The notes beneath the pieces were generated by a model that worked only from the letters and a program-made list of their open reading frames with translations, searched no databases and was not told the DNA's origin. Both the position numbers and the translations under genes were made by a program. A stretch of DNA of 20,000 nt. Source: an uncultured virus (IMG/VR IMGVR_UViG_3300031281_000001) (taxonomy: Duplodnaviria > Heunggongvirae > Uroviricota > Caudoviricetes). Within the stretch, counting starts at the first letter, position 1. The number at the start of each line of letters is the position of its first letter. Below are positions 802 to 17,903 of the stretch, one piece after another. Where the stretch lies: the IMG/VR virus record IMGVR_UViG_3300031281_000001; one strand, 5' to 3'.

Positions 802-1185
802 TTAATCATCAAAACTAGTTATTGCATAAATATTAGCAGACCTCTTACCTGCATAATTCGCCATCTTTCCAGTTACATCTAATTGAAGTGCCATCTGTCC
901 AAATGGTGTAGAAGAAAGGAAATCTGCATATTTCCCTGTATATTTTACTTGAGCTTCTCCAACCTTTTCTTCAATCGTTGTTCTGTAGTTAGGTGTTGAT
1001 GCAACCATATGTGCCGTAAACCACCTGGAAATCTCTTTCTTTAAAGTATCCGTAATATCCCCATCCCCTTCAAATACTTTATCAATAACAGCTTCCGCAG
1101 CAGCCATACATGCAGCTATCAAAGCATCTGGAATCGTAGTATCATCCATTATTTCTCTTATTTCAATTGCTGTAATTAGTGCCAT
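802..1185 (-). CDS. Putative head-tail adaptor/connector (DUF4054-like)
   Basis: 127 aa, helical N-terminus, RWFTAHM, EKVGEAQVKY and LSSTPFGQ motifs; SD AAGGAG upstream; first structural gene after the glycan cassette. Confidence 0.65.
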   Translation of the reverse strand: MALITAIEIREIMDDTTIPDALIAACMAAAEAVIDKVFEGDGDITDTLKKEISRWFTAHMVASTPNYRTTIEEKVGEAQVKYTGKYADFLSSTPFGQMALQLDVTGKMANYAGKRSANIYAITSFDD

Positions 1186-1186
1186 T

Positions 1187-1873
1187 TTATTCTCCTTTCT
1201 TTCTTTGAGGACTATTTTGTAATAAAGACTCCGCTAATGCAACTACATTACTATTCCAAGATAACCCAACCCATTTGAGTAATTCATGTATTTGACAATA
1301 GTCACCATACACCATACGTTCAGGCCAAATTACTTTACAATTTAAACCACTTTCAATCATTTCAATGAATAATTTTTCATGTTGATGAACCCACCACAAC
1401 CATCCGTCATTTTCCGAATCAGCCCCTACAGCCTTTTGATTTACTTTTAATTTAAATGTATCCATATACGCCGTTTTCATGCACGAAGAAATAATATCAC
1501 CCGTACGTCTACGAACTATAACATATTTAGCATTTGGAAAAGCACAACTCCAAACGGGCCATACTTGCGCAATTCGTGAACTTTTATATAACCATGTAAC
1601 ATCACTGTATAGTTGTATTCTCAATTTGACTTCCTTAGCCCAATTAACAGGAATTAAAAGTTCTTTAGTATCTGGAAGTGGGTAACGACCATTTTTATCA
1701 ACATGCAAATCTGAATAGTATTTATCTACCAAGTTCTTAACTTGATCATTTTCCATCATTTCACTCGTTCGCCCCGTGTATGCCCCGCACATTTGCAAAA
1801 TTCTTGCAATAATAGAACTTCCTGATCGTTCTATTCCTGTAACAAAAATCGGTGAATCAATTACATTCATCAT
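1187..1873 (-). CDS. PAPS-dependent sulfotransferase family protein
   Basis: N-terminal 5'-PSB-type loop PIFVTGIERSGSSIIARIL, then WLYKSSR and FPNAKYVIVRR, matching Sulfotransfer_3-type layout. Confidence 0.75.
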   Translation of the reverse strand: MMNVIDSPIFVTGIERSGSSIIARILQMCGAYTGRTSEMMENDQVKNLVDKYYSDLHVDKNGRYPLPDTKELLIPVNWAKEVKLRIQLYSDVTWLYKSSRIAQVWPVWSCAFPNAKYVIVRRRTGDIISSCMKTAYMDTFKLKVNQKAVGADSENDGWLWWVHQHEKLFIEMIESGLNCKVIWPERMVYGDYCQIHELLKWVGLSWNSNVVALAESLLQNSPQRKKGE

Positions 1874-2481
1874 AAATAACTATTAATAAGTTGACGTCTA
1901 TTCTTTTTACGAGACACTGAATCACAAGTACGAATTATTTGTTTAGGATGCCTACGATACCCTTCAAATGCAAAATCAATATATCCAATATTAAATCTTG
2001 CTTTTAAACATCTTAAATTAAATTCCAACTCTTCAAACGAGTGCATTTTGGGATCTTCATTAAAACCCCCTATTTTTTCAAATACTTCTTTACGATATAT
2101 TAAAGAACTACTATGAATTACATTCTTTTTAAGAAGATCATTTAAAGTAGGTAGTTTAATTGATGGTACATATGTCTTTGAATAAAAACCAACATCTAAA
2201 TACATTTCACGAGCATTTCCATGAGCAAAATGCACATTTTCAAATGTAGGGGATTCAAATGCTTTGATATATTGTTCAATAGCCCCTGGAAGAAGTATAT
2301 CATCTTCATGTAAGAATTTGATTAAATCCCCTTGAGCTTGTGGAAGAGCTTTATTGAAATTCCGAGGCCAATTTCCATTTCCCTGACTCAAAATTAATTG
2401 AACATCAGATGGAACACTATCAATTGCTTGTTTGAGCCATCCTCTATCAATTTTATATGGTATAATTATTGTCACTTTCAT
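1870..2481 (-). CDS. Glycosyltransferase family 2
   Basis: VTIIIPYK start, NFNKAL..AQGDLIKFLHEDD (DxD-equivalent), YRKEVFEKIGGFNED..EELEFNLR. Confidence 0.85.
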   Translation of the reverse strand: MKVTIIIPYKIDRGWLKQAIDSVPSDVQLILSQGNGNWPRNFNKALPQAQGDLIKFLHEDDILLPGAIEQYIKAFESPTFENVHFAHGNAREMYLDVGFYSKTYVPSIKLPTLNDLLKKNVIHSSSLIYRKEVFEKIGGFNEDPKMHSFEELEFNLRCLKARFNIGYIDFAFEGYRRHPKQIIRTCDSVSRKKNRRQLINSYL

Positions 2482-3152
2482 AATGGAACGGAATTAATAT
2501 ACTCATTTATCCATCCAATACGTGATGCTGCAAATATACGAGGTTTTCCATGAAAACACACAATTTTTGTATCATTTGGCAACGACATTAGTAATTCACG
2601 GGTCCTCGGTTTGAAATCTTTAATTCCATTAGTCATACTTTGCCAATACAGATCAGCCGATATATGTTTCTTTAAAAAATAATCCATTCTTTTACCCACC
2701 ATTTTATTGGGATGCCAATTATTCCAAACCTGCTTTATTTTTTCGGAATTAGCCGGAAACCAAACCAATCCAGTTGCTAATTGCCCCTTTTGCCAAAAAT
2801 CTTCAAGGGTAATAAATTTAGTAGGATCCGTTACTAAGTCAAAAAAATACTCTACAGAATCAATAACAGCAGTATCCAAATCAATGTATAAGAACGGTCT
2901 GTATTTTTCCATTTCCGGACTATACAATTGCATTCTTGACCAAGTTCCAATATAATTATTTCTTAAAGGGATTACTTCAACACCTACTGTTAAAGAAAAT
3001 TCAACATCAGTCTGATCCCACAAACAAATAACTCTTGGTCTGATTTCAGATTTCCATTTTGTATTTATATGATGTGCAATCAATTCAACATCATTAAAAG
3101 TAAAATCTCCACTACTTTTTAAAACTAATACAACTGTACGTCTATTTTCCAT
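2478..3152 (-). CDS. GT-A fold glycosyltransferase (GT8-like, phage type)
   Basis: GTWSRMQLYSP, FLYIDLDT (DxD) and C-terminal IVCFHGKPR motifs. Confidence 0.75.
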   Translation of the reverse strand: MENRRTVVLVLKSSGDFTFNDVELIAHHINTKWKSEIRPRVICLWDQTDVEFSLTVGVEVIPLRNNYIGTWSRMQLYSPEMEKYRPFLYIDLDTAVIDSVEYFFDLVTDPTKFITLEDFWQKGQLATGLVWFPANSEKIKQVWNNWHPNKMVGKRMDYFLKKHISADLYWQSMTNGIKDFKPRTRELLMSLPNDTKIVCFHGKPRIFAASRIGWINEYINSVPL

Positions 3153-4110
3153 TGTATTTGCTCCTATAAAAATTTATAACATCATGAATTATATATTCAC
3201 GATCATATATTGGACACCACTCCAATTCACTACTTATTTTTTCAGAGTTCGGAACTTTGTCCCAAGTCTCTTCGAAAAGAGGTCCATGTATCGTTTTAGG
3301 ATCTACATGTATAATCTTACTTTTACTCTTCGTAACTTCCTTTACACAATTGGCAATGTAATTAATGGTTGAAATATTATGTGAATTTCCAATGTTCCAA
3401 ATTTGATTATATTTGTTCATGGTAGAAACTAAATAAATACCATCAACAATATCTTTTACGTGTGTAAAAGCCCGAACCTGTTCACCATTCCCGAACACTG
3501 TTATATCTTTCCCTTCCAAAGCTTGTGTAACGAATGTAGGTAAAACAAATCCCCCTGCTTTTAATTGTCTTGCCCCACTAATGTTGAAAGGACGAACAAT
3601 TTGATATTTTAAATTGGATGTTTTTGCAGTATTACAAAGAACAATTTCAGCAAGTAGTTTTGCCTGGGCGTATTCATTCCGAACCGAAAATTCACCGACA
3701 AGCACCTTGTCATCGTTTTCTTTCAACATTATTGCATGATCCCTATATCCGTATATTTCCGAAGTCGAAACGAATATCAAAGGGCAGTTCCTATTAATTT
3801 TGGCTCCTAAAATGACTCTATAGGTATCTTCAAGAATCATATTTGCCATTTGCCCCGAATGTTTAAGAACTCCAACAGGGCCAACCGGACTTGCATAATG
3901 AAGAATCAAATTAAATTGGGTTGAACCCCAATTATAATCCAAAAGATCACAAATAACAACATTTACATCTTTACAAATCGGGTCATCAGGTGTAATAACA
4001 CTGGATGAAAGATTATCAACAACGGTAACGTTCCACCCCTCGGCCTTGAATTTCTCAATTGAATGAGAACCAAGAAATCCTAATCCACCTGTTATTAAAA
4101 CATTTTTCAT
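3142..4110 (-). CDS. NAD-dependent nucleotide-sugar epimerase/dehydratase (extended SDR; UDP-glucuronate decarboxylase-like)
   Basis: TGGLGFLG Rossmann motif, ASPVGP, STSEIYG, catalytic YAQAK (YxxxK), RPFNISGARQ, GNGEQVRAFTHVKD. Confidence 0.88.
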   Translation of the reverse strand: MKNVLITGGLGFLGSHSIEKFKAEGWNVTVVDNLSSSVITPDDPICKDVNVVICDLLDYNWGSTQFNLILHYASPVGPVGVLKHSGQMANMILEDTYRVILGAKINRNCPLIFVSTSEIYGYRDHAIMLKENDDKVLVGEFSVRNEYAQAKLLAEIVLCNTAKTSNLKYQIVRPFNISGARQLKAGGFVLPTFVTQALEGKDITVFGNGEQVRAFTHVKDIVDGIYLVSTMNKYNQIWNIGNSHNISTINYIANCVKEVTKSKSKIIHVDPKTIHGPLFEETWDKVPNSEKISSELEWCPIYDREYIIHDVINFYRSKYNGK

Positions 4111-4871
4111 ATACTCGTTACTTTACGATATTCTGTTTTATAATCATCTTTCATAAATAATCTTGTTCTTGATGGCCCCCCTTTACTGCTTTTTATTCTC
4201 TCTTTAAACATAATTCCTAATTGGGAATGTGACCAATCTTTCCAATTTGCTTCAATCGCAGGAACATGATCACCTATTTTTCCATCATATTTAAAATAAG
4301 GTTCTTCACAAACCATTCTTTTAACTTCACTACTCGTCACCTTCCATTTATGACGAAACCAAACCCCCGAATATTTACAAGCTTCTGCCCCTTTTGGAAA
4401 TAAAGGGCTTTTCCAAGACTGATCATATTCAGCTTCCTCAGATTCATAATAAGCCAAATTTGCTAACCGTAATCTTAATACAAAGTCATCATCTTCAAAA
4501 CCACCACCAAAATACCCTTCATCCCACCATCCAATTTTACGAATCAATTGTTTTGAAAAACCCATAAAACCAACACTGTATTTGGTGGCCATTGCAAAAC
4601 CATTCTCTAACAATTGAAGTATGTGTTTTGCATCAAAAAATGTAGGCTTTACACGGTCATTAAGAAATAACATATACTCTGTTGGAGAAGTTACAATTGA
4701 ATGATTAATCAATTCTGAAAAGGAATCGTAAGAACCAGGATGTCGATCAATACGATTGTTCCAATATACCTTGTAATAATCATTTAAACCTTCTAAAGCA
4801 TCCATTTGATCATTTACCACTTTCATATTGCAACCACAATGTAAGCAAATAGTTATTTCTTTTATTTTCAT
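4107..4871 (-). CDS. Divergent GT2/GT7C-like glycosyltransferase
   Basis: YMLFLNDR and FSKQLIRKIGWWDEGYFGGGFEDDDFVLRL, the GT-A C-terminal motif. Confidence 0.7.
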   Translation of the reverse strand: MKIKEITICLHCGCNMKVVNDQMDALEGLNDYYKVYWNNRIDRHPGSYDSFSELINHSIVTSPTEYMLFLNDRVKPTFFDAKHILQLLENGFAMATKYSVGFMGFSKQLIRKIGWWDEGYFGGGFEDDDFVLRLRLANLAYYESEEAEYDQSWKSPLFPKGAEACKYSGVWFRHKWKVTSSEVKRMVCEEPYFKYDGKIGDHVPAIEANWKDWSHSQLGIMFKERIKSSKGGPSRTRLFMKDDYKTEYRKVTSI

Positions 4872-5455
4872 AATAAATTTTTATCACAAATAATCAAAAC
4901 ATCATGATCATTCCCTTTTATATACCTACGATCATCAATATAAACACAATGCTGAATATCTTTTGGAAATTGTTCCATAATCAATTGCAACATACGTTTC
5001 TTTTCTTTCAAAGATTTAATCCAACATGCAGCATCTTCAATAATTAAAATCCCATCGTTTTTAAGTAAATTCAAATAATTATTAACCACAAAAATTTGTT
5101 CACCCACTACATGAGAGCCATCATCAATAATAATATCAAATTTACCTAGTTGAGTTAATTGTTGTATAGTTACATAACTATATGCATTCGCTTGTATTGC
5201 ATGTATATTACTATATAATGGAACATTCACTTGCCTCAAATCACAATCAATTCCATAAATAATAGAATTACTAAAATATTCAGCCCACAAATTTAACGAA
5301 TCCCCTTGATATACCCCTATTTCCAATATTTTAATTTTCTTTTCTCTAAATCTTGAGAATAAAACATTATATAATGAAAGATAAGTATGATTATTTTCCC
5401 CATACTTATCTGTAGTATGCTTTTTTTCAAAGTATATATCAATTAAATTACTCAT
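4868..5455 (-). CDS. Class I SAM-dependent methyltransferase (sugar O-methyltransferase-like)
   Basis: TDKY..HTY..LY, KILEIGVYQGDSL..WAEYF..IIYGID, FDIIIDDGSH, GILIIED. Start placed at ATG 5455 (ATGA overlap with upstream stop) rather than the ORF-track 5479. Confidence 0.85.
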   Translation of the reverse strand: MSNLIDIYFEKKHTTDKYGENNHTYLSLYNVLFSRFREKKIKILEIGVYQGDSLNLWAEYFSNSIIYGIDCDLRQVNVPLYSNIHAIQANAYSYVTIQQLTQLGKFDIIIDDGSHVVGEQIFVVNNYLNLLKNDGILIIEDAACWIKSLKEKKRMLQLIMEQFPKDIQHCVYIDDRRYIKGNDHDVLIICDKNLL

Positions 5456-6210
5456 TGCATCATTTTTACCAATGACCAAGTACTATCCCATTTTTTACTC
5501 CCTGCAAAATGTCTAAAAATTACATCCTCCACTTTACCAGATGTGGTGGGTATTTTATAAAATTGATTAGTATCATGCCACGAAGTAACATTCCATTCTA
5601 CTGGTAATATATCTACATTCTTTTCTAAATCCTCAATAGAATAAACAGGTTGATTTTTACCAGTAGAACACCAACCTTTATGGTCAAAATTCATCCAACT
5701 TTTCTGTTTCGGATCGGCAAAAACATCATCTATGCCAGCCAATGAATACCACGAAGCTTGCTCATGAAACACTTTCCAAAATGGGTTGTTTTTAAACTTA
5801 TCATATCTACTTTCACTAAGTAAATAATTTAACATTTCTTTTGACCAATTACTGACTCGTATAGAAACGGCCCCCATACAATGTGTATTACATGAATCAA
5901 TCGCATAAGCAAAACTTTTTCCTCCGTGTGGTTCGAATGATTGTGCACCATTTACAATACAAATATCAGCGTCAATCATAGAAATTATATCACCTTCTTT
6001 TATTTTTCCACCTAATATCCAATCTCGAATTAAAAAAAATCTATCCCATACAATTCCTCTATGAAATGTGACTTGATTTTTAATATCCAAAATTTCAATA
6101 TATTCAAAATCATGATATTCACAATACATTTTATTGCGGGGTGAATGATAGTTTAAAAAATGATCTTGTCTATCATCCTTGTAATCTGCTATGCAAAGCA
6201 AATACTTCAT
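5452..6210 (-). CDS. GT34-like (GMA12/MNN10-type) glycosyltransferase
   Basis: YCEYHDFEY, MIDADICIVN (DxD), HEQAS, WN and FRHFAG motifs follow the GT34-type order. Confidence 0.65.
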   Translation of the reverse strand: MKYLLCIADYKDDRQDHFLNYHSPRNKMYCEYHDFEYIEILDIKNQVTFHRGIVWDRFFLIRDWILGGKIKEGDIISMIDADICIVNGAQSFEPHGGKSFAYAIDSCNTHCMGAVSIRVSNWSKEMLNYLLSESRYDKFKNNPFWKVFHEQASWYSLAGIDDVFADPKQKSWMNFDHKGWCSTGKNQPVYSIEDLEKNVDILPVEWNVTSWHDTNQFYKIPTTSGKVEDVIFRHFAGSKKWDSTWSLVKMMQ

Positions 6211-7073
6211 GTATTCAATATTTTATTTTTCCAATATTCAAAAGTCAATTTACTGTAATCCCAATTTTCTTTCCAAATTCTAGTATATTCAGATAGTAAA
6301 AATTCATAAGTTACTTGACTCCAATCATCAACAAAACAAATAGGCAAATCAGTATAAAATCTATTGTTTAAATTCCTCTTTTCAATAGGTATCGTTTTCA
6401 CATAAAGGCATTCCCAAGTTCTATGCGTATCCATGCCATTCCCCTGGGGGCTAAACACAAATCGATGTCTTTGCAAATTATCAAGGTAACGATCAAAATC
6501 CCTACCATTCACCCCATTTTCACACGTTACCCATGTTTTATCACGAAACATGCTATATAATTTAAGTCGTTCCATGTTCGTGTCGCGATTCACATTCAAA
6601 TAAACCAAATTACGAAGTGGTGGTTTAGTGGATATTAAAGAACTTTGAAGTATTTTTTCTTTCTTGCGCACATCTGGAAACCACATGCTATTTTCCAAAC
6701 CAATAGGAATTGATTCAATTTTAGGATGTATACAATTCACATTTTTGGTGTACCATTTAATTAAATTATCTGGCAATACATAAGGTGTCACGGATTCAAC
6801 TTCCCCCCTCCCATTTGGACGAATAATGCTCTTGTCTTCAATTCTACAATCACAACTATGTGTAATCAAAATAAATTGTCCTTTTAAATGTGCTATTAAA
6901 TTAAGCAATTTAGGGGCATATGAAATATGTGTATATACAATATTTCTATCTTTTAAATTTGACAATTCCATTGTATTTTGCAAATTATCATAATCATCCC
7001 TCATTTTCTGTTTAGGGGAATACGTAAAATCAGCAATTGTTTTGAATTTTTCACCAGTTATAAAATCAATCAT
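6207..7073 (-). CDS. Exostosin/GT47-like glycosyltransferase
   Basis: SIPIGLEN and C-terminal FVFSPQGNGMDTHRTWECLYVKTIPI..LPICFVDDW. First ATG is at 7073; the ORF track starts at TTG 7079. Confidence 0.65.
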   Translation of the reverse strand: MIDFITGEKFKTIADFTYSPKQKMRDDYDNLQNTMELSNLKDRNIVYTHISYAPKLLNLIAHLKGQFILITHSCDCRIEDKSIIRPNGRGEVESVTPYVLPDNLIKWYTKNVNCIHPKIESIPIGLENSMWFPDVRKKEKILQSSLISTKPPLRNLVYLNVNRDTNMERLKLYSMFRDKTWVTCENGVNGRDFDRYLDNLQRHRFVFSPQGNGMDTHRTWECLYVKTIPIEKRNLNNRFYTDLPICFVDDWSQVTYEFLLSEYTRIWKENWDYSKLTFEYWKNKILNT

Positions 7074-7075
7074 AA

Positions 7076-7807
7076 TCAAAACGAATTAATAAAGTTTCTT
7101 AATATTTTTGTTGCCTGTTTGCATTTGTCATTATTTTGTTTATACCAACTTCCACTATGTAACCTATGCGTATAGTATAACCCTGGAACTATTTTAATCA
7201 TATTTCCATATAATAACCATAAACAAGAAAAATACATAGCATCATTATAACTAAGTAGGTTGTCTTTATCATACGATTCGTATACTTGTAAATACATAGC
7301 TCTGTTTACCAAATAATTACCAGTATTTAAACAAGCTTCAAAACTTCCAACGTCTAAATAATTCTTTGCGTTGGTGTGATCAATATCTAAATGACAAAAT
7401 TCGCTATAATCCCATTGCACCTTTCCATCCAAACTCATTAGTTTTTCAGGGCAATACAACACATTCTTATCAAAAAAATGAAGTTGGCCAAAACATTTCA
7501 CATAGTTTTCATCAATTATATTATCAGAATCGAGAAGAATCACATATTCATTATTGCATTTCTTTACAACTTCATACTTATTACGAAGAGGCCCTAAATT
7601 GGATGAATTTCTGTAAATTTTTATTTTTCGCACATCCAAACCAGTATCATATATGATACTTTCAAATAGTTTCGAATAATTTTCTATTGTAGAACAATCA
7701 TCCAAAATAACAATCTCATCAATACATTCATTCGATAACACCTTAGCGAATGATTCCATTGTTAAATCAGGCCGATTAAAAGTAGGTATAGCTAATGAGA
7801 ATTTCAT
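7076..7807 (-). CDS. Glycosyltransferase family 2
   Basis: FSLAIPTFNR, EIVILDDCS, NLGPLRNK, YVILLDSDN. Confidence 0.88.
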   Translation of the reverse strand: MKFSLAIPTFNRPDLTMESFAKVLSNECIDEIVILDDCSTIENYSKLFESIIYDTGLDVRKIKIYRNSSNLGPLRNKYEVVKKCNNEYVILLDSDNIIDENYVKCFGQLHFFDKNVLYCPEKLMSLDGKVQWDYSEFCHLDIDHTNAKNYLDVGSFEACLNTGNYLVNRAMYLQVYESYDKDNLLSYNDAMYFSCLWLLYGNMIKIVPGLYYTHRLHSGSWYKQNNDKCKQATKILRNFINSF

Positions 7808-8430
7808 ACTAATTTTCGTTTAATGTAAAAAGAATCCCCCCATTTGTTTTTAGTCATTTTAGTAGCCATACGAACAAAATCATACAATTTTAAATATTCG
7901 TCAATTTCAGTTACTAAACAGCACCCCTTATATAATTCATCTTCGTTTACTTCAGTATAAATGTAATCAATTTTATCAAGGTATTTCCCCATACTTTTAA
8001 TTACACTCAATTCTACACCTTGAACATCTATATTGAGAAAATTAAAATCTTCAATTTGTCTTTCACCCGAATCAAAAAGTTCATCTAAACGTACCATTTT
8101 TATTTTTTGTTCACCTACATAATAAACATTAGGATGGTACAGTTTATGTAAATGAAGCGTGAGAATTGAAGAACTTTGTCCGTCATTATTGGAAATATTC
8201 AAAGTTGCACTTTTTAAAATATCATGCACACCTGCATTATAGGCATAATGCCCACAAAAAACAGAAATATTCTTTACTAATCTATCAAACAATTCGTTAT
8301 TAGGTTCAAAATAAATAACCTTTTCAAATCCCTTTCGAACATACCAAAATCTTTCCTGTCCTTCATGTGCCCCTACATGAATAGCCCCCCTACATTCCTT
8401 TAAATATTTTTCAAAATTAGTAAATAGCAT
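7804..8430 (-). CDS. FkbM-family methyltransferase
   Basis: IHVGAHEGQE, YFEPN, SSSIL, RLDE, FLNIDVQGVELSVIK, YIYTEV..LYKG. Confidence 0.9.
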   Translation of the reverse strand: MLFTNFEKYLKECRGAIHVGAHEGQERFWYVRKGFEKVIYFEPNNELFDRLVKNISVFCGHYAYNAGVHDILKSATLNISNNDGQSSSILTLHLHKLYHPNVYYVGEQKIKMVRLDELFDSGERQIEDFNFLNIDVQGVELSVIKSMGKYLDKIDYIYTEVNEDELYKGCCLVTEIDEYLKLYDFVRMATKMTKNKWGDSFYIKRKLV

Positions 8431-8433
8431 ACA

Positions 8434-9231
8434 TTAGATTTTTATCCATTCTTTTGGGTAATGTACTGAATCATCATAAGTACTCCATTTCTTTTTTGAA
8501 ATAATCCAATGAGAAGGGGCTACTACCTTTTTACTTTCATTATTATTTAAATAAGCTGCCCACCAACTAAAAGTACTGTGAGAAATTATATTATGAGTGC
8601 ATAACTTCATTAATTCTAAATCCAAATAATCTTCCAAACTAACAAAAGTTATTTTTCTATCAAAATTTTCCTGATTAAAATGTTCCTTGCACCATTCTAT
8701 TTCGTCACTAAATATAAAGATACTTCCTTTATCAATTAGTTTTAAGGCATTATAATAATACTGCAAAGGCAATGGTGTCAAGGCATCTAATTTGTGTGGT
8801 TGAGCGTAATCACCTCTTCTAATATGCACTGAAACTGATTCTTCGGAAGTAATCATTTCTACATATTGTAAGAAATCATCAGTATACCATTTTCTCTCAA
8901 CACAAAATTTATTTCTTAAAATAGGTAAAATCTTATTGTAAAATTTTATATATTGCCAATAACCATCAAAATAACAGCCATCCAAAACGATAACTCTCCT
9001 ATTAGCATCATTCTTCCTATCGTATATTTTTAAAAGTCTAGTTCTGTTTTTAATTTTTACATTAATATCATACTTATCTAATCGATATGGTCTAGGCCAC
9101 TCTAAATTTTTATTCCTCTCATACCACGTATCATCATAATAAACTTTAAGGCCATACTCTTCTTTAGCCATACCAAAAGCATATTGAAATAGCTGATTAC
9201 CTAATCCCCCCTGTAATTTTATTACATTCAT
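8434..9231 (-). CDS. GT11 alpha-1,2-fucosyltransferase family protein
   Basis: GGLGNQLFQYAF, GYWQ, SVHIRRGDY (GDP-fucose-binding HxRRGDY), IFSDEIEWCK, HNIISHSTFSWWAAYL. Confidence 0.92.
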   Translation of the reverse strand: MNVIKLQGGLGNQLFQYAFGMAKEEYGLKVYYDDTWYERNKNLEWPRPYRLDKYDINVKIKNRTRLLKIYDRKNDANRRVIVLDGCYFDGYWQYIKFYNKILPILRNKFCVERKWYTDDFLQYVEMITSEESVSVHIRRGDYAQPHKLDALTPLPLQYYYNALKLIDKGSIFIFSDEIEWCKEHFNQENFDRKITFVSLEDYLDLELMKLCTHNIISHSTFSWWAAYLNNNESKKVVAPSHWIISKKKWSTYDDSVHYPKEWIKI

Positions 9232-9989
9232 ATCATTACATTTTCCATATGTTCTACTTTATTTACAACATATGAAGGATTTTCCTGTAAGAACTCTTTT
9301 AATGTCAATTTTCTAAAAGATACAATTTCACTATCAGGGCAAATATTTAATATCTCTACATTTTTCTTTTTAGCATCTTCCAAAATACTTGGGAATCCCG
9401 TTAGATGCCTATCAAATGGAAAAGTAGGCCGTCTACGAGGATGCCTATCAGCAGGATTTCTTCCCATCCTATGATACAAATTATGCCAATGTTGTTTTCC
9501 TTCTTTATCAATTTTCATATCAAACCCTATTAACATTATTCTCTTTGCACCAAAATGAACAGCTAAATTAATAGCAGCCGAACCACTATTCGAGTTCCAC
9601 GACAATCGTTTAGGATCATTACTTATACCCTTACTATGAGAAGAATCTCTATTTAAATATTTAATCCAACTATACTTTTCACATAATGGATGACAAGAAA
9701 CCTTTATTCCTGGAAAAGCCGCCAGCCCTAATTTTTCTCTAAGAAAAAATCCATTATCCCCAAAAAATACGACATCTATCCAATCCCCTATTTTATAAGC
9801 CATATTTACCGCTATTACATGTTTATCATGTAATATACTCATATATGGCGAGTAGACATTAGGAGTAGTTTTTTCAGAAATGACATCTTGTACTACCCTA
9901 TTAGGAATACCAAATTGTTCAGTTAATGAAGGCCCACCTCCTAATATCCATACATCACCACCTTCCCACATTCTAGGAACATTCCACAT
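9228..9989 (-). CDS. Maf/DUF115 (MptE-like, CstII/GT42-related fold) putative glycosyltransferase
   Basis: ILGGGPSL, VIAVN, FFGD, NSGSAAINLAVHFGAKRIMLIGFDM, HWH. ATG at 9989 overlaps the upstream TGA; GTG at 9992 is an alternative start. Confidence 0.65.
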   Translation of the reverse strand: MWNVPRMWEGGDVWILGGGPSLTEQFGIPNRVVQDVISEKTTPNVYSPYMSILHDKHVIAVNMAYKIGDWIDVVFFGDNGFFLREKLGLAAFPGIKVSCHPLCEKYSWIKYLNRDSSHSKGISNDPKRLSWNSNSGSAAINLAVHFGAKRIMLIGFDMKIDKEGKQHWHNLYHRMGRNPADRHPRRRPTFPFDRHLTGFPSILEDAKKKNVEILNICPDSEIVSFRKLTLKEFLQENPSYVVNKVEHMENVMI

Positions 9990-10357
9990 CACCGAGATAA
10001 ATCTGAAATTAATTTGTTAGCTGTTACTTCATCTAAAGGTTTCTGATTTATTATTTTTCCAGTAGATGTTAAAACATTGAAAAATCCTTCTTCATCTTCG
10101 GCTGGTTGTAATTTGTAAGAAGCTTTATTCACGTTTGAAACTGGTATTTCTTCCATTATTTCCTGTTGTGGAATTATCACATCACGGAAGGCTTTGGAAA
10201 CTTCGTGTGGAAATGCTTTAAACCTTTCCCCTGGTTTTATTATTCTATTTTTTCCTATACGGAAAGTTTTTCCATTATTCTTAAACCAAATCTTTTCATC
10301 TGTAGCCTTATTTTTTTCTAAAGAAACTACACCATTTTGTTTATCACTTCGAATCAT
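9989..10357 (-). CDS. Hypothetical protein directly downstream of the major capsid protein
   Basis: 122-aa ORF filling the gap, coupled to the next gene by TGATG; no family recognised. Confidence 0.6.
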   Translation of the reverse strand: MIRSDKQNGVVSLEKNKATDEKIWFKNNGKTFRIGKNRIIKPGERFKAFPHEVSKAFRDVIIPQQEIMEEIPVSNVNKASYKLQPAEDEEGFFNVLTSTGKIINQKPLDEVTANKLISDLSR

Positions 10358-10402
10358 ATCTTTCTATTTAAATTAATACTTGATTAGTATTATTCTATAA
10401 AA

Positions 10403-11512
10403 TTAAGCTAAGTGAACAATGCCACTTCTCTTATTATAATCCGAACGGATTTGAGGAACCTGGATGGTCATGACTTTGTAGTTAGTGACCATATTCCCCT
10501 CAGATTTCCATTCTACATTCTGAAGGCCCATTCCGCGAACAAGACGAACAACATCAGAAGTCATTTGAACTAAAAGAACATTGCCATCTGTCAATGTATC
10601 AATAACTTTAATTCCTTTAATTCCATTAATCTTCATAATGCGTTCACGAATTGTTGTTCCAGGTGTAGTGGAATCATAATCATCATCCAAAACAGTTTCA
10701 TACGTTGTTGGAATATATAACATCCACGGGCCATAATGATAATCTGCAATACTTGCTTGTTTCATTTCAAGAACATCCTGAATAATTCCTGCCCCCGTCA
10801 TTGCAGAAGAGTTCCATGCAATACTCAAATTAATAAGATTCCTGTCAGGATGATTTACATAACTATAAATAGTATTCCTGCCATTACTTCCTTTCTCACC
10901 CCATGAATACGTTGTATTTGTAAACAACATTGCTTCCAATTTTTCAGCTACTTTACGAGCAGCTATTTGAGCATCAATCGTATCAAGTGGATTACCCAAA
11001 TTGCGGGATGCTGCTAATTCACGAGCATTTATCTCATAATCGATGTGAATTATAGGAATTGGTAAATAATGGTAGTTGAAATCAGGGCGGTCATTCTTTG
11101 CTCTGGTAATACCATCCATCGTAAGTTCAGCTTCAAAAGCATCACTTACATCATGATATTCAAGAATTGTAGTCCCCATTGCATTACCTAAATTATAGGT
11201 AAGCCCATTGTCAACTAAATCCTGAATACCGATTAATCGAGTACGGGATACATCCAATAGTGCATCATCTAATGATTTCCATTCATCACGACGAAGTGTG
11301 GCATTTGTCAAAGGAACTTGGTACGTATGATAACTTGTTGCTTTTTTAGGATTTCCACCAGTATAAACCGTTACATATGCATTACCATTATCATCTATAA
11401 ATGGCCTTCTGGATCCTATATTAAGTTGTCCATTTGCCATTAAATATTTGGCAATGTCCCCTTGTCCACCACTTTTTAAAAGCACATCAACATTTGCATT
11501 TATTCTTTTCAT
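10403..11512 (-). CDS. Major capsid protein, HK97 fold (encapsulin/Linocin_M18-like)
   Basis: 369 aa from ATG 11512, preceded by SD AAAGGAGG. LRRDEWKSLDD..R, LPIPIIHIDYEINARELAASRNLGNPLD..AARKVAEKLE and YGPWMLY resemble encapsulin-type shells; position after protease and decoration genes. Confidence 0.85.
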   Translation of the reverse strand: MKRINANVDVLLKSGGQGDIAKYLMANGQLNIGSRRPFIDDNGNAYVTVYTGGNPKKATSYHTYQVPLTNATLRRDEWKSLDDALLDVSRTRLIGIQDLVDNGLTYNLGNAMGTTILEYHDVSDAFEAELTMDGITRAKNDRPDFNYHYLPIPIIHIDYEINARELAASRNLGNPLDTIDAQIAARKVAEKLEAMLFTNTTYSWGEKGSNGRNTIYSYVNHPDRNLINLSIAWNSSAMTGAGIIQDVLEMKQASIADYHYGPWMLYIPTTYETVLDDDYDSTTPGTTIRERIMKINGIKGIKVIDTLTDGNVLLVQMTSDVVRLVRGMGLQNVEWKSEGNMVTNYKVMTIQVPQIRSDYNKRSGIVHLA

Positions 11513-11530
11513 TGTCTTTCCTCCTTTCAA

Positions 11531-12052
11531 TTACATTATACGAATTAAAGTATGCTGAGTAGTTGTGGCTCCAAACTCACTGGAATCTGTAGTTGACAAT
11601 GAAGTCAAATCCTTTGCTTCAACAGCCTGTCCTACTACATGCTGATCATATAATGTATGAGCACCACCACCTGGGTACGCATCATCTGATTCCCAAGATT
11701 CATTTGTGCGAACTTCCTTACGAACAAATCCTGCCCCATTAGATTCTACAAAATCCCCAATGGAAACGCTGTCTTCATCAGCAAGTAACAAATAGGCCAT
11801 ATCACCACGTTGTGGAATCCATACACGAACCTTATCCCCACTTGCATACGCTTCATCAATGGCCTTACCTTGTAAGGCATCTTCAATCGCAACCATTACT
11901 AAAGCAGTTTTTCCAGCTCCAGAATGTTTCTGCACTTTACCGGCACTAGTCAATTCTACAAGTTGTCCTGGGAGAATTGTTCCATATGCTTCGTATTCTT
12001 CAAATACATGAAGATAATCTTTAATTATAATCGTATTATGTTTAATAGACAT
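11531..12052 (-). CDS. Putative capsid decoration/cement protein
   Basis: 173 aa, beta-rich (GTILPGQLVEL, AYASGDKVRV, SIGDFVESNGAG, VVGQAVEA); strong SD AGGAGG at 12061-12066; between protease and MCP. Confidence 0.7.
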   Translation of the reverse strand: MSIKHNTIIIKDYLHVFEEYEAYGTILPGQLVELTSAGKVQKHSGAGKTALVMVAIEDALQGKAIDEAYASGDKVRVWIPQRGDMAYLLLADEDSVSIGDFVESNGAGFVRKEVRTNESWESDDAYPGGGAHTLYDQHVVGQAVEAKDLTSLSTTDSSEFGATTTQHTLIRIM

Positions 12053-12069
12053 CGTATTTTCCTCCTTTC

Positions 12070-13923
12070 TTATTTCTTAGTTTCTTCTTCAAGTTCAATT
12101 CCGGCAGGTAACATATGATTTACAATGTTTGCATTAACCCCTACTTTCCTCATTCCTAAAGCTGAATAATTAATAATTTCACTGTTTTCATCATTTTCTG
12201 TTACTACAGAATTATAAAGCTTTTCAAGAAAAGCATCATTACATGCTTTCAAATCATCGTCCGACCAAGTTCCCTGTTCAGTATTGGACTGAATGCTTCT
12301 AATCCAATTATCCCTGCGAGCTTGTTTTTGAGCACGTCCAAATTCTAATGCTTCTTTATCTTCTACAGATAACGCATTTAGAATCATTTCACGAGTAATT
12401 TTAACCTCAGAGTTAGTGGCTGGTTTATTTTCTACTGGAACAGCATCCAACCATGCTTCATCCTTTTCCAGTAAATACTCACGATCAGCGGCAGTAAAAG
12501 GATTTGCATTACTCTGAATTATTGCAACCACTTTTTCCATACACTTCCCGCACTCTTCTTTATTTGCCATAGAAGTACCTCCTTTTAAATTATTATTAAA
12601 TTTAGCTTTCTCTTCATGAGTTCCCAATGGGACATAATCAACTTTTTGTCTTACTTCCGTTGGATTTCCCAACAATACTGGAAATCCATTCGTATCCAAC
12701 TCATATTCTTGTTGGTACATACGTTGATCAGGGCTTTCTCTATTTCTTTTAGAGAATACAATATGAGTATTATTCATATCCTCTAAATAATGAGAAGCAC
12801 TTTGATTATCCATTCGATCCAACATTCGTTGAGCTGACTGAACCATAGACTTATATCCTTGATCTATGTTAGCATTAAGAATATTTTGAATATGTTCCTG
12901 TTTCTCAAGTTCAACCCCCATATTATTGCCTACATCAATGTCAAAATCTTTAGCTTTTGCTTTAATCTTAGTAAAGGCAGAAGCTCTTTCTTCAGAACTT
13001 ATTCCTTGTACTTGACTAATTCTTACCAAAGCATTTCTAACATGATCAACATCAAAAAGAGGAAGATGACTTGCACTTGGTGGATCTTTAGGGATGGCAT
13101 AGAACTCATTTGCAGACATCCCTAATTCTTTGCGTTTAGCCTCCATATCGGTGCCTTTAGCATCAATTTGCATGTTTACATTTTCTCCTTTCTTTTCATT
13201 ATTAACACGTACCCCACAACCGTCATTCCATGAACAAGCCCCTGTAGCGCCGGGCAAGAGAGCTAAGTGATCTGGTCTATGGTTTCTAGCTGTAGCAGTA
13301 TATCTTTCATTGTTCCAAATACCCGAAGTTTCATCTTCATCAGTGAATACCCCTATACTAACTTCCAGGGGTTCCCCTGTTATAATAGCTGTGTATGCTT
13401 CTGGGGAAATTTCCTGTAATTTCTCTGGATCTATATATCCTTCTGCTTTTAATTTTACACCATCCATATGGGCATTGAATGTTTGTCCTACAGATAATGA
13501 TAACATTTCTGGAGAATTTGCTGAAACATTGATTCCTTCTGTATTAACAGGATGTTGTATCATTATAGGCATTCCATTCCACGCCTCAGGAAATCTACCT
13601 AATTCAGATGCTGGGTGATATAAAGGGCCTAATGATCCATTATGAACACCTTCAACCATCATTGTAATTGGAACGATAATATGCTTCTTTCCTTTGTATA
13701 CCGTCTCACGAATTACATAATTTATATTGGAAATGTTAATATGTAATTGATTTCCGGTTACACCATTTGCCTGACGAATAGCAGAAGCTGCACAAGTCTC
13801 TTCACTGCCACCATCAGCCATACATTTACGTAAAACAGAATTTGCTATTTCTGCCCATTGTCGTTTTTGTTTAGCAGATAACCCTTTTTTATGTTTATCC
13901 GCATCTTCTGCTCTCCACGGCAT
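12070..13923 (-). CDS. DUF2213-type prohead protease/scaffold fusion with ChaB-like N-terminus and DUF6582-like insert
   Basis: MVEGVHNG..LY..EL..WNGMPIMIQHP, LEVSIG and RPDHLALLPGATGACSWNDGCG in the N-terminal half; charged helical C-terminal half; between minor head and decoration genes. Confidence 0.8.
   Translation of the reverse strand: MPWRAEDADKHKKGLSAKQKRQWAEIANSVLRKCMADGGSEETCAASAIRQANGVTGNQLHINISNINYVIRETVYKGKKHIIVPITMMVEGVHNGSLGPLYHPASELGRFPEAWNGMPIMIQHPVNTEGINVSANSPEMLSLSVGQTFNAHMDGVKLKAEGYIDPEKLQEISPEAYTAIITGEPLEVSIGVFTDEDETSGIWNNERYTATARNHRPDHLALLPGATGACSWNDGCGVRVNNEKKGENVNMQIDAKGTDMEAKRKELGMSANEFYAIPKDPPSASHLPLFDVDHVRNALVRISQVQGISSEERASAFTKIKAKAKDFDIDVGNNMGVELEKQEHIQNILNANIDQGYKSMVQSAQRMLDRMDNQSASHYLEDMNNTHIVFSKRNRESPDQRMYQQEYELDTNGFPVLLGNPTEVRQKVDYVPLGTHEEKAKFNNNLKGGTSMANKEECGKCMEKVVAIIQSNANPFTAADREYLLEKDEAWLDAVPVENKPATNSEVKITREMILNALSVEDKEALEFGRAQKQARRDNWIRSIQSNTEQGTWSDDDLKACNDAFLEKLYNSVVTENDENSEIINYSALGMRKVGVNANIVNHMLPAGIELEEETKK
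12578..12584 (-). promoter_or_regulatory. Internal Shine-Dalgarno (AAGGAGG) for in-frame ATG at 12570 (putative 166-aa scaffolding protein)
   Basis: Minus strand reads AAAAGGAGGTACTTCTATGGCAAAT; 7-nt spacer; ATG is in frame (codon 452). Confidence 0.6.
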
Positions 13924-13948
13924 AATTTTTCATATTTTAAGTTAATAA

Positions 13949-14890
13949 TTACTGAATTAAAAACGGAAGGGCAATACATCTACACAATGGATGTGCTGGA
14001 ATCATTCCCTCTATTTCATCTAATGTAAACACTTTTCCTTGTAAAGAAGCACATTTAGGACATACTCTATCATCACCAGCAGTCATCCATTCACCTTGAA
14101 CAATCACACCATGTACTGCCCAGTTTCTATATTCCTGAATAGTAGCTACATGATGTGCCCTTATAATTTCTGTTCTAGCCAAAATTTCTGCTCTCCGTTT
14201 AGCTGGTATAAATCTACCTAAACTATCAGTGATTCCCAATTCTCCAACACCTTGCCCATTAATAACTGCTATTAATTTACGGGCAATTAATCTTGGATGA
14301 TCCCCATCTGCTATTCCTTGAGCAAGGATTCTACTGATGAATGAATCCATAGCATCAGTTATCCCCTTCAAATCAGTATACACTCTGGTGTAAAGTAAAC
14401 CAAGACGATCTATATGAAAAGGAGTTGTCATCGACATTTCTATTCCCCCTGTTTGCTCTATAGATGGCACATCGAATCCAGCTTTTTGTAATTCAATACG
14501 AGCCCTTATTATCCCTCTTTTATATGAATCATAAATATATTTATTTTCCCAAGCAGAATTAATAGCAGTGCCTATTTGTTCAAATTCTCTTATTGATAGC
14601 AATCCAGCATTTACTTGTTGCTCCAACCATTCCATAAATTTAGCAACTTTATCTTTACTTAAACGATAAGCAAAAACATGCCATCCTGCAGAAATCATTT
14701 GTTGTGTAACAAACCCCCCTTCTACTTCTTTTAATCCAAAACAATCATTTAAATCAACTGTTTGTCTAATGATACTTATTAAATTGTTAAATCGTTTCGA
14801 CATATCATTGGCAAACACATTACGAAGTGCTGTGGTATGCGTGGGATCATATTTATTATACACATATGGTGTTATGCCAGCACTATTCAT
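13949..14890 (-). CDS. Phage head morphogenesis protein (SPP1 gp7 / Mu gpF-like)
   Basis: RRAEILARTEIIRAH and WMTAGDDRVCPKCASLQG..IPAHPLCRC. Probable start ATG 14890 overlapping the portal stop; ORF track begins at 14914. Confidence 0.9.
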   Translation of the reverse strand: MNSAGITPYVYNKYDPTHTTALRNVFANDMSKRFNNLISIIRQTVDLNDCFGLKEVEGGFVTQQMISAGWHVFAYRLSKDKVAKFMEWLEQQVNAGLLSIREFEQIGTAINSAWENKYIYDSYKRGIIRARIELQKAGFDVPSIEQTGGIEMSMTTPFHIDRLGLLYTRVYTDLKGITDAMDSFISRILAQGIADGDHPRLIARKLIAVINGQGVGELGITDSLGRFIPAKRRAEILARTEIIRAHHVATIQEYRNWAVHGVIVQGEWMTAGDDRVCPKCASLQGKVFTLDEIEGMIPAHPLCRCIALPFLIQ

Positions 14891-16307: not shown

Positions 16308-16753
16308 TATTTAATCTTTATTAAATACGTTGTATCATTATGCAATGACTTACTTATCATATTATTTAAAACAACATCTTTTTCACCCCCTTTGTCAATA
16401 TTGCTTATTTCATTTTTTATAAACTTCATAAATTCAATAATTATATCAAACTTCATATCAGTTGAACTAACAATACTCTTGTGTTGCTCCTGATTTTCTA
16501 ACTTAAAGTCAGATATATCATTATTAATTTTGTTATCCTGCTGGTTAACGTACTGTAATAATGACATAAATTGCGAATCTACTTCAGTTTTTTTAGGACG
16601 GTCGTTAATGTCTTTTCGCAATTCCTCTGTCTTATTTTTTGCGTCTACTATTACGGAATAAACACCGCTCCACCACAAACCTAAACACCCAAATAAGCAT
16701 GTTAATAAAGCTCCTAACAATAGCTTTGTCCATTCTTTTTTTAACCAGTTCAT
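16307..16753 (-). CDS. Single-TM membrane protein with coiled-coil C-terminus (possible holin-like)
   Basis: Hydrophobic LLLGALLTCLFGCLGLWWSGV followed by a polar helical region; stop overlaps the portal ATG. Confidence 0.55.
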   Translation of the reverse strand: MNWLKKEWTKLLLGALLTCLFGCLGLWWSGVYSVIVDAKNKTEELRKDINDRPKKTEVDSQFMSLLQYVNQQDNKINNDISDFKLENQEQHKSIVSSTDMKFDIIIEFMKFIKNEISNIDKGGEKDVVLNNMISKSLHNDTTYLIKIK

Positions 16754-17144
16754 GTCCCTTGTATATTAATGTTATTACCCCTATTATTATTATTGATATA
16801 AGCATCCCATCCCATATCTTAACCCACACCACATTGTCCTTGCCTACAAATAAATTTACTTCAAAAACGCATATAAAATAATAAGCCATTTTTGCTATTA
16901 AAAAAATAGGCAATATCCATTTAAGAATAATTTTTCCAATCCTTTCAGGGTGCATGTATCCGGCATACCAGCACGTACAAGCGAAAGCAATGTGAGTGGC
17001 TAAATTATAAATAGATTTTTGCAAATAACTATACTCTCTTATTTTAGCCCCTATTGCATGATATTCGCTAATTAACGCCATGTATATAATTGGAATAATT
17101 ACAGCCATGCTTGTTATTAGTTTATATTTTATATCATCTTTCAT
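16632..17144 (-). CDS. Multi-pass (4-5 TM) membrane protein of unknown function
   Basis: Several ~20-aa hydrophobic segments, basic C-terminus (RRKK). Confidence 0.6.
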   Translation of the reverse strand: MKDDIKYKLITSMAVIIPIIYMALISEYHAIGAKIREYSYLQKSIYNLATHIAFACTCWYAGYMHPERIGKIILKWILPIFLIAKMAYYFICVFEVNLFVGKDNVVWVKIWDGMLISIIIIGVITLIYKGHELVKKRMDKAIVRSFINMLIWVFRFVVERCLFRNSRRKK

Positions 17145-17147
17145 CGT

Positions 17148-17237: not shown

Positions 17238-17249
17238 ATTATAAATTTT

Positions 17250-17855: not shown

Positions 17856-17864
17856 GCCTACTGA

Positions 17865-17875: not shown

Positions 17876-17903
17876 CAATATAGGATATAATGGAAATGTC
17901 ATA

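Follow-up and report, generated by a model that had tools for sequence, protein, structure and literature searches.

The window analysed here, a 20,000-nucleotide stretch of DNA from an uncultured virus of the Caudoviricetes (IMG/VR record IMGVR_UViG_3300031281_000001), encodes a cassette of 12 consecutive sugar-related genes on its minus strand (positions 1187-9992), in the interval between the MCP (major capsid protein) gene and a head-tail adaptor gene. This cassette is one of the versions of an island that is hypervariable, with fixed flanks, two fixed anchor genes and a shuffled middle. We read it as a machinery for late cytoplasmic glycosylation, together with sulfation, of the particle's own surface, a reading to which we give a probability of about 0.5.

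Ten of the twelve open reading frames (ORFs) were identified by Pfam and PHROGs. The other two (6207-7079 and 5452-6210) showed no direct Pfam match. Since they resemble viral RXYLT1_C/GT47 and GT34/DUF273 clusters of the ESM Atlas, the cassette comprises eight glycosyltransferase (GT)-like proteins, two methyltransferases, one short-chain dehydrogenase/reductase (SDR) and one sulfotransferase, as the original prediction had counted them. In the order of transcription the genes are as follows.

9228-9992, minus strand: anchor 1, predicted DUF115/MptE-like transferase of Maf/CstII fold, 254 amino acids (phrog_4603 'alpha-2,3-sialyltransferase', E = 1e-27)
8434-9231, minus strand: GT11 glycosyltransferase, alpha-1,2-fucosyltransferase family (PF01531, E = 1.3e-23; phrog_2644, E = 1e-38)
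7804-8430, minus strand: FkbM-family methyltransferase (PF05050, E = 1.6e-17; TIGR01444, 66 bits, above cut-off)
7076-7807, minus strand: GT2 glycosyltransferase (PF00535, E = 3e-13; singleton in the island clustering)
6207-7079, minus strand: putative GT47/RXYLT1_C-like glycosyltransferase, 290 amino acids (Atlas 0.97-0.98 to RXYLT1_C/Exostosin-GT47 clusters, mostly viral)
5452-6210, minus strand: putative GT34/DUF273-like nucleotide-diphospho-sugar transferase, 252 amino acids (Atlas 0.97 to viral Glyco_transf_34 clusters, TM 0.64-0.71; singleton)
4868-5479, minus strand: class I S-adenosylmethionine (SAM) methyltransferase, Methyltransf_24 (PF13578, E = 5e-6; phrog_21658, E = 4e-20)
4107-4871, minus strand: weakly GT-A-like protein, Glyco_transf_7C (PF02709, 21.5 bits, below the cut-off of 23; singleton)
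3142-4110, minus strand: NAD-dependent nucleotide-sugar epimerase/dehydratase, SDR, Epimerase/GDP_Man_Dehyd (PF01370, E = 1e-36; phrog_540, E = 9e-46)
2478-3152, minus strand: phrog_1962 glycosyltransferase, P1 PmgQ-like, penultimate conserved block (phrog_1962, E = 2e-24)
1870-2481, minus strand: GT2 C-terminal-type domain protein (PF00535, E = 2.5e-8, profile positions 52-168 only)
1187-1873, minus strand: anchor 2, Sulfotransfer_3 sulfotransferase, last gene before the adaptor (PF13469, E = 4e-9)

The sulfotransferase match (37.5 bits against a cut-off of 27) covers profile positions 1-214 of 216 and is thus a full-length domain above the gathering score. In an NCBIfam scan of the cassette, no equivalog was found above cut-off except FkbM, and none for the SDR. 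The true start of the methyltransferase at 4868-5479 may be further in, as this gene begins with TTG and shares 28 nt with the gene upstream. The families of the 2478-3152 and 1870-2481 proteins occur as a single fusion of 417-461 amino acids, with the GT2-type half C-terminal, in six related loci (L004, L032, L020, L022, L019 and L021; the related loci carry L numbers throughout). Therefore, these two proteins may act as one enzyme. Homologues of the 6207-7079 protein match RXYLT1_C in L004 and L032 and are fused to Gly_transf_sug and Exostosin_GT47 domains in L022. In the Atlas, the clusters closest to the GT34-like and GT47-like proteins are more than 90% viral, and no bacterial relative of the SDR exceeded 34% identity, the best ones coming from mixed phyla. 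No close cellular source is apparent for the cassette genes in these comparisons.

At eight of the 11 internal junctions the genes overlap by 4 nt, at two they overlap by more (11 and 28 nt), and at one they are 3 nt apart. At the two ends of the cassette, the preceding gene (small122) overlaps anchor 1 by 4 nt, and the sulfotransferase gene stops 1 nt short of the DUF4054 adaptor gene. The GC content is 0.29-0.33 across the cassette and 0.34-0.39 in the head genes. Neither promoter-like sites (103, against 107 ± 14 in shuffled sequence) nor terminator-like sites (11, against 8.1 ± 3) were in excess, and no terminator-like site lies in the gap between the MCP gene and small122. With its genes on the same strand, overlapping, and with no excess of such signals, the cassette is hard-wired into the late head operon. 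Solubility was assessed by a 19-residue Kyte-Doolittle hydropathy scan, which is a crude measure: the maximum among the 12 cassette proteins was 1.28, compared with 1.87 and 2.19 in two ORFs upstream of the portal gene, and all 12 enzymes look soluble by this measure. Pfam found no priming phosphoglycosyl transferase, flippase/ABC exporter, polymerase or ligase family in the 12 window ORFs or in 141 island ORFs of relatives, components that the host could supply. The features noted in the original prediction, namely genes joined mostly by short overlaps, no obvious transmembrane segment, no obvious terminator after the MCP gene and no flippase, polymerase or priming transferase, were thus all borne out.

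Three genes define the slot in which the cassette lies.

10403-11530, minus strand: MCP of HK97 fold, DUF6260, upstream slot boundary (PF19774, E = 9e-21; Linocin_M18; phrog_771/264)
9989-10357, minus strand: small122, conserved two-domain protein of 122 amino acids (position between the MCP gene and the cassette)
802-1185, minus strand: DUF4054 head-tail adaptor-type protein, downstream slot boundary (PF13262, E = 1e-6; phrog_302)

The position between the MCP and connector genes, as originally predicted, was confirmed, except that small122 separates the MCP gene from the cassette. No match to small122 was found in Pfam, PHROG or NCBIfam, and it showed no similarity to the gene at the same position in phage MaInes. 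A profile of its homologues also matched L018 (N-domain only, E = 4e-17), L039 and L038. A role as a cassette-specific adaptor was considered for small122 and ruled out, since homologues occur in the cassette-less L018 and elsewhere; by these sequence matches, it is a gene of the lineage and not of the cassette.

A search with the MCP yielded 43 related viral loci, one of which (L002) is a piece of the same DNA as the window and identical to it, and the backbone was mapped on them by tblastn of the window proteins. The conserved order is portal, MuF, protease/scaffold, decoration protein, MCP, small gene, island, DUF4054, phrog_797 and tail completion. In the 25 loci with both flanks, the slot contains 0 to about 12 genes, and the interval from MCP to DUF4054 ranges from 266 bp (L018, with just a truncated small gene) to 9358 bp (L026), that of the window being 9217 bp. 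The closest complete relative, the genome G002 (MCP 79% identical), has 14 island genes over 10.3 kb. Anchor 1 comes first in 22 of the 25 intervals (19 of 21 after removing four duplicate pairs) and the sulfotransferase, anchor 2, comes last in 19 (16 of 21), and a homologue of one or the other is present in 24. Some islands are minimal, consisting of anchor 1 alone (L007 and L043), the sulfotransferase alone (L039/L040) or both together (L038). Two further contigs binned in metagenome-assembled genomes (MAGs) showed the same layout. The original prediction had proposed a search for relatives with sugar genes at this very position, and the slot proved to be conserved in the lineage. It had also raised the possibility of a chimeric assembly, which is excluded because the same layout recurs on independent contigs. 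Positions 9411-19901 are covered, with zero differences, by a Logan contig that was built separately from a salt-marsh run; this run may be the source sample. The two runs that contain the window are both from a salt-marsh metagenome, and no RNA run was listed as containing it.

The content of the islands was scanned with Pfam (E ≤ 1e-3) on 141 ORFs from 21 non-redundant intervals. Of the 86 ORFs with a match, 85 are sugar or glycan enzymes and one is a helix-turn-helix (HTH) protein. The GT families in relatives are GT2, GT8, GT9, GT10, GT11, GT32-type, GT47 and DUF6492, with MptE-like proteins in addition, and the methyltransferases are of FkbM, TylF-type and C-methyltransferase families. 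Other enzymes include radical SAM/B12 proteins, SDR epimerases/dehydratases, Polysacc_synt_2 with UDP-GlcNAc 2-epimerase and DegT aminotransferases, and L031 carries up to four sulfotransferases with an adenylylsulfate (APS) kinase. By single-linkage clustering, 186 island proteins were grouped in 55 families, of which 34 are singletons; the GT2 (7076-7807), GT34-like and GT7C-like genes of the window have no homologue in the other sampled islands. Such an O-antigen-like organization, with fixed flanks and a shuffled middle, implies diversifying selection on an exposed glycan. The HTH protein (L020:16046-16636) is of the HTH_48 (Mos1-transposase) type and may be a trace of an element that moves genes in and out of the island. 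A second island of sugar genes is present in the head module of L004 (L004:3161-8199), between the MuF and protease/scaffold genes, with a GT2, two DegT aminotransferases, a GNAT acetyltransferase and a split transketolase-like thiamine pyrophosphate (TPP) enzyme. This second slot is empty in the window, where MuF adjoins protease/scaffold, and in L026 it holds a 709-amino-acid protein and others, with no Pfam match.

Anchor 1 scored 24.8 bits against PF01973, below the cut-off of 34.6. In an alignment of 20 homologues, the motifs GGGxS, NSG and LxGxD are invariant and HWH is near-invariant. Its AlphaFold2 (AF2) model (predicted local distance difference test, pLDDT, 90.4) was compared with structure representatives by VIA-align and by Foldseek. 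The top fold match was the central domain of the Maf flagellin glycosyltransferase (5MU5, residues 261-517; Z 14.0, root-mean-square deviation (rmsd) 4.1, 195 residues), followed by Cst-I (2p56, Z 10.8), the archaeal MptE HPPK (Z 10.5) and SteA (Z 9.7), and more weakly by mammalian sialyltransferases (Z about 8) and thiamine pyrophosphokinase (TPK; Z about 7). Foldseek placed CstII first (E = 5.5e-5, TM about 0.44). Against PDB sequences, the profile of anchor 1 gave weak matches to MptE (E = 8e-4) and to a sialyltransferase (E = 0.076). From the model, we take anchor 1 for a pared-down representative of the DUF115/sialyltransferase-like fold class, with its closest likeness to a protein O-glycosyltransferase. 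It is not a member of the Maf family, since it lacks the Maf flanking domains and genomic context.

To our knowledge, all characterised transferases of this fold class use CMP-activated ulosonic acids. By Pfam, neither NeuB nor a CMP-nonulosonic acid synthetase family was found in the 12 ORFs of the cassette, the 141 ORFs of related islands or the genome of the closest complete relative. Because no island has genes to make ulosonic acids, a host-supplied donor is implied. As a speculation, this donor would be CMP-Kdo (Kdo, 3-deoxy-D-manno-octulosonic acid): a supply from the CMP-Kdo pool of a Gram-negative host would explain both the missing nonulosonic acid genes and the homologues in the Escherichia coli K-12 phage P1.

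Homologues of anchor 1 were found by tblastn in 65 cultured-phage records (21-31% identity). Five carriers were taken from the top of the match list and inspected, and in all five the homologue lies among late or structural genes, beside at least one further GT or methyltransferase, in the following orders.

Pseudomonas phage PAJU2 (gp10-gp12): Ad1, Hc1, DUF115-like, hypothetical, methyltransferase, hypothetical, tail terminator
Pseudomonas phage vB_Pae_U7: MCP, small gene, DUF115-like, Ad1, Hc1, hypothetical, methyltransferase
Phage P1: late operon pmgN-pmgO-pmgP-ppp-pmgQ, in which pmgO is the anchor 1 homologue
Caulobacter phage CcrColossus (gp126-gp131): tail protein, DUF115-like, two hypotheticals, NDP-sugar transferase, methyltransferase, GT9
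'Tetraselmis viridis virus S20' (NC_020840), a 39-kb caudovirus record: terminase, portal, protease, capsid-position gene, hypothetical, then the cassette

The S20 cassette (TVGG_00049-00041) comprises about nine genes, including two DUF115-like genes, two GTs and one methyltransferase, and is followed by Hc1, tail terminator and major tail genes. Further island families are shared with these phages: the P1 pmgQ region is 28% identical over 225 amino acids to the phrog_1962 GT of the window (E = 6e-17), this family also includes the last GT of S20, and the GT9-like gene that comes last in L009 has 33% identity to gp131 of CcrColossus (E = 4e-34). The linkage to head, neck and tail genes in phages of hosts as unrelated as E. 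coli, Pseudomonas, Caulobacter and marine bacteria argues for a substrate supplied by the phage. In P1, pmgO and pmgQ are annotated with a 'putative morphogenetic function', and according to a passage of one study both are dispensable for plaque formation by CRISPR interference (CRISPRi) (PMC10695390). Our literature search found no discussion of pmgO, pmgQ or other DUF115-led phage genes as glycosylation genes.

A candidate acceptor is encoded directly upstream of the MCP gene.

11531-12052, minus strand: capsid decoration (cement) protein, 173 amino acids, candidate acceptor (phrog_766, head decoration)

Its AF2 model (pLDDT 84.4, with low confidence in two loops only) matched chain H of the Sf11 capsid (Z 19.9) and the TW1 capsid-stabilizing protein (Z 19.1; 141-142 residues, rmsd 2.1), with a Foldseek E value of 7e-8. 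By modelled fold and position, it is an outer-capsid beta-tulip cement protein of the TW1 gp56/Sf11 type. When 34 homologues were aligned, the core proved conserved and two indel-rich segments, at about residues 117-136 and 147-169, hypervariable, the second having a Ser+Thr fraction of 0.32-0.36; both coincide with the low-confidence parts of the model. The approximate bounds of the two loops were also drawn at residues 111-135 and 150-165. The mean column entropy is 1.35 for the decoration protein and 1.07 for the MCP. In loci with a canonical anchor 1, the loop is acidic and serine-rich, of the type D-x-S-x-S-S-G-x-(D/E)-S-S. The loop is short and the motif missing in L018, which has no cassette, in the L039 group, which has the sulfotransferase only, and in the L015 and L043 groups, whose anchor 1 is divergent.

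Under the reading that we favour, the enzymes would act in the cytoplasm on virion proteins during late expression. Anchor 1 would add the first sugar to Ser/Thr of an exposed capsid surface protein, the most plausible target being the beta-tulip decoration protein encoded two genes upstream, at its hypervariable loops rich in Ser/Thr. The variable middle GTs (GT2, GT11, GT34-like, GT47-like and PmgQ-like) would then extend a strain-specific oligosaccharide, with the SDR tailoring a nucleotide sugar and the two methyltransferases tailoring the oligosaccharide. The last enzyme would sulfate the oligosaccharide or the protein directly. Direct protein sulfation would explain the sulfotransferase-only islands; the only full-length PDB matches of the sulfotransferase profile, all weak (E = 0.006-0.04), are protein-tyrosine sulfotransferases. 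We infer the acceptor, the donor sugars and the pay-off, which may be shielding or adhesion.

The anatomy and apparent solubility of the cassette, the conserved slot, the Maf-like fold, the cultured-phage homologues and the exposed decoration protein with its hypervariable loops lend partial support to virion glycosylation as originally predicted, whereas soluble GTs also build intermediates of lipopolysaccharide (LPS) and capsular polysaccharide (CPS). Several points weigh against it. All members of the island are known as genes alone. Most GTs of LPS, O-antigen and CPS synthesis are also soluble, GT2, GT9 and GT11 are typical of such loci, and CstII itself acts on lipooligosaccharide (LOS). 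Glycosyl transfer by anchor 1 is deduced from a Pfam match below cut-off and from a fold common to pyrophosphokinases. Because single-anchor islands exist, one glycan pathway does not fit all versions of the island. The dispensability of pmgO and pmgQ in P1 fits an accessory role but assigns no function. No similarity of the 186 island proteins to gp108-110 of mycobacteriophage Che8 was detectable: tblastn against the 50.0-59.5 kb region of Che8 gave one match (E = 0.005), and its query was the HTH-domain ORF. The co-occurrence of the loop motif with anchor 1 is suggestive, but it represents at most about four independent lineages and may reflect phylogeny. Cassette size was correlated neither with the length of the decoration loop (Spearman rho 0.12, p = 0.60, n = 21) nor with its Ser/Thr content (rho -0.06, p = 0.80, n = 21); the loop was delimited by a regular expression, and three undelimited loci were scored as length 1. 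Finally, lysogenic conversion is possible in part of the lineage, since a tyrosine recombinase is encoded in two of the five complete relatives (G003:C1:56003-56467 and G005:C1:61571-62020) and in none of the other three.

The main rival, serious but in our view unlikely, is that the enzymes feed the host's lipid-linked assembly of LPS, O-antigen or CPS through a host priming transferase, flippase and ligase, and remodel the envelope to exclude competing phages or to keep progeny off debris. GT2, GT8, GT9, GT11 and GT32 together with sugar-nucleotide enzymes are the types found in O-antigen/CPS loci, enzymes of the CstII type sialylate LOS, serotype loci likewise show a shuffled middle between fixed flanks, and the integrase in two of five complete relatives would suit lysogenic conversion. 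The hypervariable GT regions of pelagimyophages are read by their authors as host-surface modification (PMC7029224). However, an island in the head operon without signals of its own should be expressed late, leaving little time for glycan export, and the closest complete relative has a full replication module and no integrase. Moreover, anchor 1 homologues occur across unrelated host envelopes, with homologues of island families in three such phages, no membrane or export component was found among the 141 and 12 ORFs, and the middle GTs tested cluster with viral and not with bacterial proteins.

Also unlikely, and ranked after host-surface remodelling, is some other target: a non-virion protein of phage or host (by Tyr/Ser sulfation or flagellin/pilin-type glycosylation) or a sulfated signalling or anti-defence oligosaccharide, or else anchor 1 is a kinase or pyrophosphokinase. 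MptE HPPK (Z 10.5) and thiamine pyrophosphokinases have the same fold as anchor 1, whose best PDB sequence match is MptE (E = 8e-4), the sulfotransferase stands alone in L039/L040, and the weak full-length PDB matches of the sulfotransferase profile are to protein-tyrosine sulfotransferases. Yet no positive sign of such a target was seen, the linkage to head and neck genes in the lineage and in all five cultured carriers points to the particle, and the top fold match of anchor 1, by a clear margin, is a protein glycosyltransferase.

Hypermodification of DNA, in which the GTs would decorate hydroxymethylated bases of the genome against restriction, is very improbable, even though GT arrays of phages that build DNA glycans are described in passages of two sources (bioRxiv 10.1101/2023.12.21.572611; PMC12619734): PF00303, the thymidylate-synthase/dCMP-hydroxymethylase family, was found in none of the five complete relatives by a search whose control was positive in 10 of 14 genomes, no TET/JBP-type or other base-modifying enzyme is among the Pfam hits of G002, and the cassette lies in the head module and not in the replication module. 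The lineage as a whole consists of abundant uncultured siphophages of about 71-78 kb with a GC content of about 30%. We know of no part played by a sulfotransferase or O-methyltransferases in DNA glycosylation pathways.

G002 (75.4 kb, GC 30.1%, CheckV completeness 100%) is a siphovirus with a lambda-like tail tube, a tail terminator and a tape measure, its structural genes all lying on one strand. On the opposite strand it encodes a split family A polymerase, a clamp loader, a clamp, a primase-like gene, an SNF2 helicase and RecA. No integrase was found in G002, and temperate and non-temperate members may coexist in the lineage. A 1281-amino-acid ORF of G002 (L049:1736-5581) carries an intein with a LAGLIDADG homing-endonuclease domain; it matched no terminase family and is taken for the large terminase by its size and position, and the window stops short of its counterpart. 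A tRNA scan for the host found none. The MCP had only two matches in GTDB genomes, both on phage-sized or short contigs; the MAGs in which these were binned, one of Bacteroidales and one of Hyphomicrobiales, disagree on the host. No phage matched the window by megablast, and the best cultured match of the MCP was 36% (Brevundimonas phages MaInes and StAshley), MaInes having no cassette after its MCP gene. The family of anchor 1 comprises at least 2867 clusters at 90% identity, and among the 120 listed, all but one lie on contigs of up to about 78 kb; the anchor 1 protein of the window is recorded on a contig of 71,443 bp. Our literature search found no description of the island of this lineage, nor a function for phage DUF115-like genes.

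Every ORF of the window lies on the minus strand. In the order of transcription, the DUF5122 beta-propeller gene is read first, followed by three small ORFs (one with a LamG domain), two membrane-like ORFs, portal, MuF, protease/scaffold, decoration protein, MCP, the 122-amino-acid gene, the 12-gene cassette, DUF4054, phrog_797 and a tail-completion gene. The head genes not yet listed are as follows.

14883-16307, minus strand: portal (Pfam/PHROGs)
13949-14914, minus strand: MuF (Pfam/PHROGs)
12070-13923, minus strand: protease/scaffold, 617 amino acids (Pfam/PHROGs)

The 12070-13923 protein has a DUF2213/protease-like N-terminal part and a DUF6582 segment. It is probably a protease-scaffold fusion, judging from these domains; in relatives, its tblastn matches often come in two pieces. 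In L013 (L013:4797-6992), the MuF homologue is in two pieces about 1.2 kb apart, which suggests an insertion, such as an intein or a homing endonuclease. Directly upstream of the portal gene, two overlapping ORFs (16307-17144; 148 and 170 amino acids; Kyte-Doolittle maxima 1.87 and 2.19) showed no family match in Pfam or PHROGs; from their hydropathy, they are possible membrane proteins, an unusual location. The four genes at 17250-19987 comprise a LamG/concanavalin-like lectin-fold protein (17250-17855; phrog_8510, virion structural protein), two Ser/Thr-rich ORFs and a DUF5122 beta-propeller protein with six repeats (19016-19987), and could encode lectin-like or adhesin-like appendages of the particle. 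Logan contigs show a joint that 'goes back 152' at 20000/19849, which fits the internal repeats.

Among known systems, the nearest in proposed function is that of mycobacteriophages, in which GTs and an O-methyltransferase modify capsid and tail-tube proteins in the cytoplasm, as described in parts of three sources (PMC11600133, PMC12363180, PMC12619734, citing Freeman et al. 2023, Cell Host Microbe). These systems are Che8 gp108-110, the Corndog type of cluster O with three GTs and an O-methyltransferase, and Myrna (same sources). As far as these sources go, this is the only demonstrated phage precedent for the function proposed here. Both systems use soluble phage GTs with a methyltransferase and lack export machinery. 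Whereas the Che8 GTs lie at the right genome end, the present cassette lies between MCP and adaptor, and whereas the mycobacteriophage systems have 3-4 genes, it has 12 (14 in a relative), with a candidate initiator of Maf/CstII fold, a sulfotransferase and hypervariability. Compared with the mycobacteriophage systems, the non-homologous enzymes, the different slot, three to four times more genes, sulfation and hypervariability would be new. The original prediction had called the pathway larger than known phage examples; this holds against the mycobacteriophages (three GTs and an O-methyltransferase) but less so against S20, with about nine genes, and the close relative, with 14.

The DUF115-led cassettes of cultured phages have a homologous first enzyme, share the PmgQ-type GT, FkbM and GT9-like families and likewise lie within late or structural blocks. 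They differ in having 2-9 genes, in showing no sulfotransferase in the stretches seen and in belonging to unrelated backbones (myovirus, jumbo and lambda-like siphoviruses). Maf shares with anchor 1 the G-G-G-P-S nucleotide-binding and L-x-G-x-D motifs common to the DUF115/MptE family, as well as the logic of cytoplasmic O-glycosylation of a protein that is later assembled outside the cell. In contrast to Maf, anchor 1 has 254 amino acids and not 632, lacks the N- and C-terminal domains and is accompanied by no flagellin or nonulosonic acid synthesis genes. Bacterial O-antigen and capsule loci, and the GT regions of pelagimyophages as far as the source describes them (PMC7029224), resemble the island in their conserved flanks, shuffled middle and GC content below that of the flanks. 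Unlike O-antigen and capsule loci, the island has no Wzx, Wzy or ABC exporter, priming transferase or membrane protein and lies in a phage head operon. In chloroviruses and mimivirus, capsids and fibrils are glycosylated by virus-encoded cytoplasmic machineries of many genes. Clusters of Nucleocytoviricota are among those nearest to the GT34-like and GT47-like proteins in the Atlas, but giant viruses have eukaryotic hosts and another capsid lineage, and the relation is at family level only.

A wider proposal, which we hold to be rather improbable in all its parts together, is that the island is a 'capsid serotype locus'. The Maf-like enzyme would O-link a CMP-activated ulosonic acid to the decoration loops, swappable GTs and methyltransferases with the terminal sulfotransferase would build a sulfated, strain-specific coat under diversifying selection, and the core of DUF115-like and PmgQ-like enzymes would glycosylate the virions of P1, of Pseudomonas and Caulobacter phages and of many marine phages. 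Were this true, virion glycosylation would be widespread and overlooked in phages of Gram-negative bacteria. If the particle is the target of the cassette, variable glycan and sulfate coats would be common on phages, with a bearing on adsorption, stability, capsid-sensing defences, grazing and antibodies in therapy. The minimal Maf-like enzyme would then be a new tool for protein glycosylation, and a function could be assigned to the P1 genes annotated as 'putative morphogenetic'.

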